Of a DNA stretch of 62,705 nucleotides, positions 38,661 through 38,945 are shown piece after piece. Within the stretch, counting starts at the first letter, position 1; every line of letters begins with the position of its first letter. The position numbers and the translations under genes were made by a program. The stretch is from Candidatus Woesearchaeota archaeon. GTDB taxonomy: Archaea; Nanobdellota; Nanobdellia; Woesearchaeales; JACQSR01. Below the pieces are notes generated by a model, which saw only the letters and a program-made list of their open reading frames with translations, had not been told where the DNA came from and did not search any database. The stretch is from the NCBI GenBank assembly GCA_016211215.1, contig JACQSR010000026.1, positions 1-62,705 on the forward strand, in the 5' to 3' direction.

Positions 38661-38713
38661 GTTTATTCCATTGTTTGCGTTAGTAGAAAAAACCGCCGCG
38701 ACCCGGATTTGAA

Positions 38714-38758
38714 TTTCCCGCCTTTTACATTCTCTTCCGGGGTTTTCTGTAAAAAGCT
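38714..38758 (-). other. 45-nt intron at position 53/54 of tRNA-Ser(GGA)
   Basis: Central helix TCCC/GGGA, bulges GG|A and AA|T, 10-bp lower helix GCTTTTTACA/TGTAAAAGGC. Confidence 0.8.
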
Positions 38759-38784
38759 CCGGGACACCCTTGCGGGAACAAGCT

Positions 38785-38800
38785 GTCTTGCTCTCGGCAT
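38785..38800 (-). other. 16-nt intron at position 37/38 of tRNA-Ser(GGA)
   Basis: ATGCCGAGAGCAAGAC between A37 and A38; relaxed BHB with a G-A mismatch in the central helix. Confidence 0.7.
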
Positions 38801-38945
38801 TTCCAGGCTTGCGCAATACCAGGTTATGCGATCGCGGCAGAGAACCAAAAAAAGCCCACCTAAGTTTATAAATTTTCGTATAGTGGTTGTTAAGTTCAAT
38901 AAAATTTGGAGTCACGCCGACGAAAGGGGCAGTTTTCCTCAAGAA

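Follow-up and report, generated by a model that had tools for sequence, protein, structure and literature searches.

Thermoproteales reportedly carry multi-intron tRNA genes with non-canonical bulge-helix-bulge (BHB) introns, as set out by Sugahara et al. in 2007 and 2008. Archaeal tRNA introns are known at several non-canonical sites, position 53/54 among them (PMC4090602), and multi-intron tRNAs with the relaxed motif forms hBH and HBh′ have been described from Thermoproteales, N. equitans and ARMAN (PMC4033280, PMC3488258). Splicing endonucleases of the α4 type are said to cut strict hBHBh′ motifs only (PMC5829648). Kaneta et al. (2018), whose set includes one Woesearchaeota metagenome-assembled genome (MAG), ascribe the broad specificity of DPANN α4 EndA to the ‘L3’ (N. 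equitans/ARMAN-2) loop (PMC5829648). The kind of gene that we describe here is already known, since both 53/54 introns and multi-intron tRNAs are documented, and it is expected in the lineage under study, where such genes are poorly catalogued. The initial annotation had assigned multi-intron genes mainly to Thermoproteales and ARMAN; it was right that the kind is known, but the host here belongs to the Woesearchaeales (DPANN), in which disrupted tRNA genes have also been reported (PMC5829648).

The window, that is, the whole 62 705-nt stretch of DNA that was analysed, is contig 18 of a 1.06 Mb assembly in 35 contigs (45% G+C, 84% completeness, 0.5% contamination). We conclude, with a probability of about 85%, that it contains a tRNA-Ser(GGA) gene of Woesearchaeales that is functional and probably essential, with two introns of the archaeal endonuclease type. 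The coordinates of its features are collected in Table 1.

Table 1. Features of the interrupted tRNA-Ser(GGA) locus, in window positions
Feature	Positions	Strand	Basis
Pre-tRNA-Ser(GGA) gene	38694..38838	-	Rfam tRNA model aligned 1-71; ARAGORN on spliced forms
TATA box TTTATAAA	38865..38872	-	Sequence; also in orthologues
Exon 1, positions 1-37	38801..38838	-	38/38 identity with same-genus orthologue (L084)
Intron 1, 16 nt, site 37/38	38785..38800	-	ARAGORN i(39,16); sequence reading
Exon 2, positions 38-53	38759..38784	-	ARAGORN on spliced forms; alignment with orthologues
Intron 2, 45 nt, G53/U54	38714..38758	-	Rfam alignment, ARAGORN; homologous introns in eight other genes
Predicted HBh′ motif of intron 2	38714..38764	-	MFE and centroid folds, pair probabilities, covariation
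Exon 3, positions 54-73	38694..38713	-	ARAGORN; fuzzy search
T6 run, putative archaeal transcription terminator	38687..38692	-	Sequence

The precursor is 145 nt long, running from G1 (38838) to the discriminator G73 (38694), and does not encode CCA. Its 5′ part reads GCCGCGA UC GCAU AACCUGGUA UUGC G CAAGC CU-GGA-A on the minus strand, followed by the 16 nt of the first insert; the 3′ part reads A GCUUG UUCCCGCAAGGGUG U CCCGG, the 45 nt of the second insert, then UUCAAAU CCGGG UCGCGGC G. Exon 1 supplies the acceptor 5′ strand, the D arm, the anticodon stem 5′ strand and CU-GGA-A, with the anticodon GGA at 38802-38804. Exon 2 supplies the anticodon stem 3′ strand, the long variable arm and the T stem 5′ strand CCCGG, and exon 3 the T loop UUCAAAU, the T stem 3′ strand, the acceptor 3′ strand and G73. 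Removal of both introns leaves an 84-nt class II tRNA whose minimum free energy (MFE) fold is a perfect class II cloverleaf with every stem intact. The 7-bp acceptor stem, D arm and 5-bp anticodon stem of the class are found together only after both inserts are taken out; the spliced RNA also has a 7-nt anticodon loop (U33, purine 37), a long variable arm, a 5-bp T stem and the UUCAAAU loop. Serine identity depends on the discriminator G73 and a long variable arm. Both can be read here, the arm as UUCCCGCAAGGGUG, and together with the anticodon GGA they point to a serine tRNA.

For this mature sequence, the boundaries of intron 2 are unique. Intron 1 can be placed at 37/38 or 38/39 with an identical mature product, and the second placement was rejected for its worse motif. 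Placing it at precursor positions 33-48 was likewise rejected, as the loop would then be the non-canonical CAAGACA (anticodon AGA, A33, C37), whereas the intronless orthologues read CUGGAAA.

Standard scans overlook the gene. The Rfam tRNA model spans all 145 nt at 20.3 bits (E 0.13), accommodating 18 extra nt in the anticodon loop and 52 around the T loop; because this lies below the gathering score of 29 bits, the gene is absent from a standard Rfam scan. ARAGORN called no tRNA on the unspliced precursor, either by default or with its intron search. Once the 45 nt were removed it called tRNA-Ser(GGA) with a 16-nt intron at 37/38, and once both inserts were removed, a clean 84-nt tRNA-Ser(GGA). 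The two programs agree with the initial annotation, which held that the gene folds as tRNA-Ser(GGA) after loss of 16 nt at 37/38 and 45 nt at 53/54, and its remark that default scans easily miss such a gene is borne out by both. It had also dismissed the overlapping open reading frames as spurious, and family searches with those at 38595-38942(-), 38663-38899(-) and 38709-39116(+) indeed gave no credible match.

As modelled, the motif at intron 2 is the relaxed HBh′ form of the bulge-helix-bulge. Its 4-bp central helix (H) pairs UCCC (38761-38764; precursor 75-78), which is U48-C51 of the tRNA, with GGGA (38716-38719; precursor 120-123), the four bases preceding the last two of the intron. The bulges are of 3 nt each, GG|A on the 5′ side (G52 G53) and AA|U on the 3′ side (U54, at 38713), and both splice sites fall after the second bulge base, so that the BHB geometry is complete with four of four pairs formed. 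The intron helix (h′), GCUUUUUACA/UGUAAAAGGC, has 10 bp. These helices occur in both the MFE and the centroid folds, with pair probabilities of 0.78-1.0 in the precursor; the mature T stem has a pair probability there of 0.04, and the folding z-score of the whole precursor is a modest -2.35. The helices and bulges thus match, down to their lengths, what had been proposed from the letters alone, and the accompanying claim that the T stem must be unfolded in the precursor fits the low T stem probability. Since the UCCC/GGGA pairing dominates the precursor, the T arm would be kept unfolded until splicing.

The strict hBHBh′ form is not seen at intron 2, where h′ is present and the outer helix h is absent; beyond the 3′ bulge one G.U pair is possible at most. 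A strict reading was tried and rejected for lack of that outer helix: the MFE fold pairs GGGU with AUUC, leaving 1-nt bulges that are incompatible with the splice sites. Two features of the intron 2 loop were also set aside. The apical loop contains CCCGG (38737-38741, minus strand; precursor 98-102), the sequence of the T stem 5′ strand, whose pairing with the freed 3′ strand would require a pseudoknot; as a stand-in for the T stem it has a nested pair probability of 0.001 and is unconserved in orthologues, and we regard it as coincidence. A 16-nt exact match to the loop elsewhere in the genome (C9:37642-37657) lies in a coding-looking region with E 0.16 and is attributed to chance.

Intron 1 presents the other relaxed form, hBH, in which the anticodon stem is the outer helix and there is no intron helix; relative to strict hBHBh′, h is present and h′ absent. 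Its central helix consists of C32-G, U33-A, G34.A and G35-C, three of four pairs with a G.A mismatch, in the BHB geometry. This motif is weak in the thermodynamic ensemble, where a 7-bp hairpin outcompetes it (P 0.98). The competing hairpin pairs GAGCAAG of the 3′ part of the intron with CUUGUUC from the anticodon stem 3′ strand (38785-38800 with 38776-38782, minus strand; precursor 46-63); GAGCAAG is a near copy of the anticodon stem 5′ strand, and the hairpin displaces both the anticodon stem and the intron 1 BHB. The intron of the same-genus orthologue likewise holds GCAAG copies, and intronless orthologues read exactly CAAGC CUGGAAA GCUUG. The weak thermodynamics are regarded as a fault of the intron 1 motif and not of the gene.

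The locus was compared by BLAST with 60 relatives, and mature RNAs were aligned with gap tolerance. The identity of the predicted mature RNA reaches 99% against the spliced Ser(GGA) of G003, a genome of the same genus; for the uninterrupted Ser(GGA) genes in G034, G051, G037, G021, G032 and G022 it is 82-90%, and the G034 gene scores 54.1 bits as a tRNA. In the G003 gene one intron, of 22 nt, sits at 37/38 and another, of 30 nt, in the T loop near 59/60, with none at 53/54. Introns have therefore come and gone within one genus, and the 53/54 intron is not needed for the tRNA. A genome from another family (G041) shares both intron sites of the window gene, with a 44-nt intron at 53/54 in a segment that is 82% identical.

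A search of 401 Woesearchaeales genomes, themselves a sample of the larger order, with the pattern CYGG.. ... GGGAAA/UUCRAAUC found nine tRNA-Ser genes in eight of the genomes, spread over seven families; the reversed pattern, run as a control over the same 401, gave 0 matches. The nine genes have the anticodons GGA and UGA, some with a D-loop or third intron, and share the 53/54 architecture UCCY GG/A ... GGGA AA/UUCAAAUC. The pattern itself fixed the central helix and the U run, which leaves only the three proximal intron-helix pairs as an unbiased sample; the central helix is invariant over the nine genes except for one C-to-U change (G-C to G.U), and the first three intron-helix pairs vary among G-C, A-U, C-G and U.G. 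Four pairs, lying outside the part fixed by the pattern, have changed on both sides, and 91.9% of alignment cells are paired, compared with 63-70% in registers slid by one column; none of 500 shuffles reached the covariation score. Because the helices covary, the fold displaying the splice sites is under selection.

These comparisons decide whether the tRNA match could be a chance outcome of freely chosen deletions, as the low score of the precursor (20.3 bits, E 0.13) and its modest z-score (-2.35) might suggest. Orthologues with and without introns yield the same mature sequence, comparative data that refute the idea, and a fold predicted independently places its bulges exactly at the splice sites, in a motif that is conserved and covarying. 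We give chance a negligible probability.

Further rearrangements were seen among these genes. Three-intron tRNA-Ser genes occur at L156 (G345:C11) and at L155 and L157 (G074), with one intron in the D loop or at 59/60, one at 37/38 and one at 53/54. In G345 the 53/54 intron is 97 nt long and holds, further inside, a repeat of its 3′ splice-site half (CUCGGGAAAA), as though an insertion had lengthened a short intron. Many Woesearchaeales tRNA-Ser genes (among them the loci L085, L091, L096, L098, L101 and L106 of the relatives G034, G029, G022, G007, G051 and G011) have the final 14-30 nt of the tRNA repeated 20-70 nt downstream, and at L096 the repeat takes in 14 nt of the trailer. With almost nothing between the copies, they look like att-type or duplication scars. 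The Ser(GGA) gene of the window has no such downstream repeat.

The gene sits in a 285-nt spacer, flanked on one side by a convergent H+-pyrophosphatase gene that ends at 38660 and on the other by a small minus-strand ORF, with the housekeeping genes aIF2-gamma, S3Ae and GyrB near the locus. A distance of 26 nt separates the TATA box (-34..-27) from the mature 5′ end, and the same box is found 24-26 nt upstream of the orthologues in G041, G345, G146 and G070. A single base stands between G73 and the T6 run, and T runs also trail the orthologues. Adjoining the promoter are two overlapping 112-aa ORFs, at 38946-39284(-) and 39281-39619(-). The first has a weak match to ParE toxins (E 9e-4, below the cut-off), and the pair may be a toxin-antitoxin system.

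A second intact tRNA-Ser(GGA) gene was the genomic finding that the initial annotation had named as counting against its reading. None was found in the 84%-complete assembly by ARAGORN with introns, the Rfam model, or a fuzzy search for Ser-like 5′ and 3′ parts. The Ser-type genes recovered there are Ser(CGA), Ser(UGA) and the interrupted Ser(GGA) only, and long ORFs use UCU plus UCC at ~24 per 1000 codons. In annotation terms, then, the only UCU/UCC decoder found in the genome is overlooked by standard scans; only 15 tRNA matches in the genome exceed the Rfam threshold. Since such interrupted genes are overlooked, seemingly incomplete DPANN tRNA sets are partly hidden behind introns.

Other tRNA genes of this genome are interrupted as well. 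Within the window, tRNA-Glu(CUC) at 10462-10615(-) is interrupted by 77 nt and tRNA-Leu(UAG) at 56293-56408(-) by 30 nt; further interrupted genes lie outside it, at C32:24002-24085, C30:8204-8272, C34:1889-1948 and C9:21668-21721. Among these, the Leu(GAG), Val(UAC) and Val(GAC) genes break off after UUCGAA/UUCAAAU, that is, at T-loop introns near 59/60.

An intact second copy could sit in the missing 16% of the genome, and the gene in the window might then be a decaying or silent copy whose inserts stay unspliced while that other Ser(GGA) does the work. The incompleteness of the assembly (84% complete), the weak intron 1 motif, and the many recent insertions in tRNA genes of the order would all fit such a history. 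Decay is hard to reconcile with a spliced product whose stems are all intact, with an exon 1 identical to that of the same-genus orthologue, and with a retained promoter and terminator. The covariation of the intron helices across families, which shows selection on the RNA fold, argues against it too, as does the failure to find a second Ser(GGA) in the assembly. We consider a silent copy improbable, and take the gene as functional in what follows.

The genome encodes the two enzymes that splicing would call for. The RtcB gene is at C33:27801-29114 (571.8 bits). The EndA gene, at C20:55005-55265 (98.1 bits; L001 1474-2049 minus), encodes about 190 aa with domains PF02778 and PF01974 and scores 117.8 bits with TIGR00324 (cut-off 59.6). 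Its best resemblance is to the N. equitans catalytic subunit (3iey_A) and the M. jannaschii homotetramer subunit (1a79), to the latter in a near gap-free alignment with the Tyr-His-Lys triad aligned; its close relatives come from MAGs labelled Woesearchaeota, Nanoarchaeota or Nanoarchaeia. It is a single ~180 aa-type gene with N- and C-terminal domains and the triad, as in M. jannaschii. Neither a three-unit fusion nor a beta subunit gene was found beside this one gene of about 190 aa.

Residue by residue, EndA is collinear with the M. jannaschii enzyme except for one residue. The insert with a key lysine at the CSL/ASL site is absent, a place where A. pernix has nine extra residues (the Crenarchaea-specific loop, CSL). 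The basic loop at the catalytic His, N. equitans residues 90-98, is also absent; N. equitans has six extra residues there. That loop, which we take as the definition of ‘L3’, carries K93, K94, K96 and R97 in N. equitans (PMC3488258). Among 80 screened EndA loci of relatives, the Tyr-His motif was not found in one; the Tyr-to-His spacer has nine residues in the own EndA and in all 79 readable relatives, and 15 in N. equitans. Woesearchaeal EndAs (L002-L081) have kept a Lys or Arg at the CSL site, within the short loop ‘DG(K/R)VQ’, at a place where crenarchaeal and ARMAN enzymes bear loops with a lysine and M. jannaschii has Asn; most relatives have Lys and the own enzyme has Arg (‘DDGRVQ’), and the residue is a candidate for RNA contact. 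The related enzymes also conserve an acidic loop, D(D/G)EGDVT, which resembles the L10 tetramerisation loop of M. jannaschii and is compatible with a tetramer. From its sequence the enzyme looks like a plain α4 type, and its likely oligomeric state and substrate range are judged on that basis. The presence of relaxed motifs as substrates in the genome argues against the classical restriction of α4 enzymes to strict BHB motifs.

The initial annotation had held that a relaxed-specificity endonuclease is needed. The expected hallmarks of such an enzyme are absent: the genome has one alpha gene, a beta subunit was not found, and the CSL, the ASL and the N. equitans loop are all missing. The gene might be functional and the plain EndA still depend on a structural partner or RNA-binding protein that escaped recognition, in a cryptic heteromer. 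Relaxed cleavage has been tied to α2β2 or ε2 architectures or to specific loops (PMC5829648, PMC3488258), and the EndA here comes without any such loop or partner type; crenarchaeal beta subunits are very divergent and resemble it only weakly (E 0.04-0.4). Six-frame ORFs of the own genome searched with phmmer --max gave no second EndA-like gene, and the beta-subunit candidates from phmmer had no likeness to EndA and were rejected. PF01974 has exactly one match in 58 of 61 relatives, single-contig, closed genomes included, and the NCBIfam beta model (NF007085) matches the alpha gene only. The retained acidic L10-like loop, as in the M. jannaschii homotetramer, speaks for a single subunit as well, and subunit type is said to contribute least to specificity (PMC5829648). 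We judge a hidden partner unlikely, though less so than a silent copy.

The wider proposal is more tentative, and we put it forward at somewhat less than even odds: one M. jannaschii-like EndA, lacking a beta subunit as well as CSL(L1), ASL(L2) and L3, the loops that prevailing models deem necessary, would splice the abundant relaxed introns of Woesearchaeales at non-canonical sites (53/54, 59/60 and the D loop). If true, this would be a further, loop-independent route to broad specificity, contradicting the loop-centred model of EndA and tRNA-disruption co-evolution; such specificity may rest on the conserved Lys/Arg of ‘DG(K/R)VQ’. How a loop-less single-subunit EndA handles relaxed motifs is the main question that the locus raises. 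With a plain enzyme of this kind beside relaxed substrates, the link of endonuclease architecture and loops to tRNA disruption becomes directly testable. The nine tRNA-Ser genes with a covarying 53/54 intron in seven families, joined by the same-genus relative with a 59/60 intron instead, form a natural substrate series for studying relaxed-motif recognition.

From the observed anatomy, motif, conservation, covariation and enzyme genes we infer transcription, cleavage by EndA, ligation and the order of intron removal along the following lines. The gene would be transcribed from its own TATA promoter to the T-run terminator. In the precursor the T stem 5′ strand (U48, C49-C51) would pair with GGGA near the 3′ end of intron 2, blocking the T arm, and the 10-bp intron helix would stack beside UCCC/GGGA, so that the splice sites G53/A and A/U54 lie in bulges four bp apart. 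The 16-nt intron at 37/38 would be displayed atop the anticodon stem in its weaker hBH motif. A single EndA would cut all four sites and RtcB would join the exons, after which the T stem could refold, the ends be trimmed and CCA be added.

Like the gene described here, tRNA genes of Thermoproteales (PMC4090602, PMC4033280) carry two or three introns apiece, with one at 37/38 and the rest in the D or T arm. In both, relaxed hBH/HBh′ motifs compete with the stems of the mature tRNA, and introns are patchily distributed and turn over among close relatives. The Thermoproteales genes differ in being crenarchaeal and cut by an α2β2 enzyme with the CSL, whereas the DPANN Woesearchaeales studied here have a single alpha-type EndA without the Crenarchaea-specific loop. 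The DPANN genomes with α4-type EndA of Kaneta et al. (2018; PMC5829648) belong to the same superphylum; many of their tRNA genes are likewise interrupted, and the tRNA sets predicted for them are incomplete. The L3 loop to which that paper attributes the broad specificity is absent here, and the spacer has 9 residues (as in M. jannaschii), not 15. The ARMAN-2 pre-tRNA-Cys, with a T-loop intron and an ε2 EndA (Hirata et al. 2012, PMC3488258), is cut by a three-unit protein of 395 aa that bears the ASL lysine loop, unlike the enzyme of about 190 aa here, which has no insert at that place. Methanopyrus kandleri pre-tRNA-Glu(UUC) (PMC5829648) is also interrupted by an HBh′ intron outside the canonical position, and the endonuclease of that species has no specific loops either. 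Its enzyme consists of separate alpha and beta subunits (α2β2), cleaves inefficiently and faces few such introns, whereas Woesearchaeales combine a single subunit gene with many introns of this sort.
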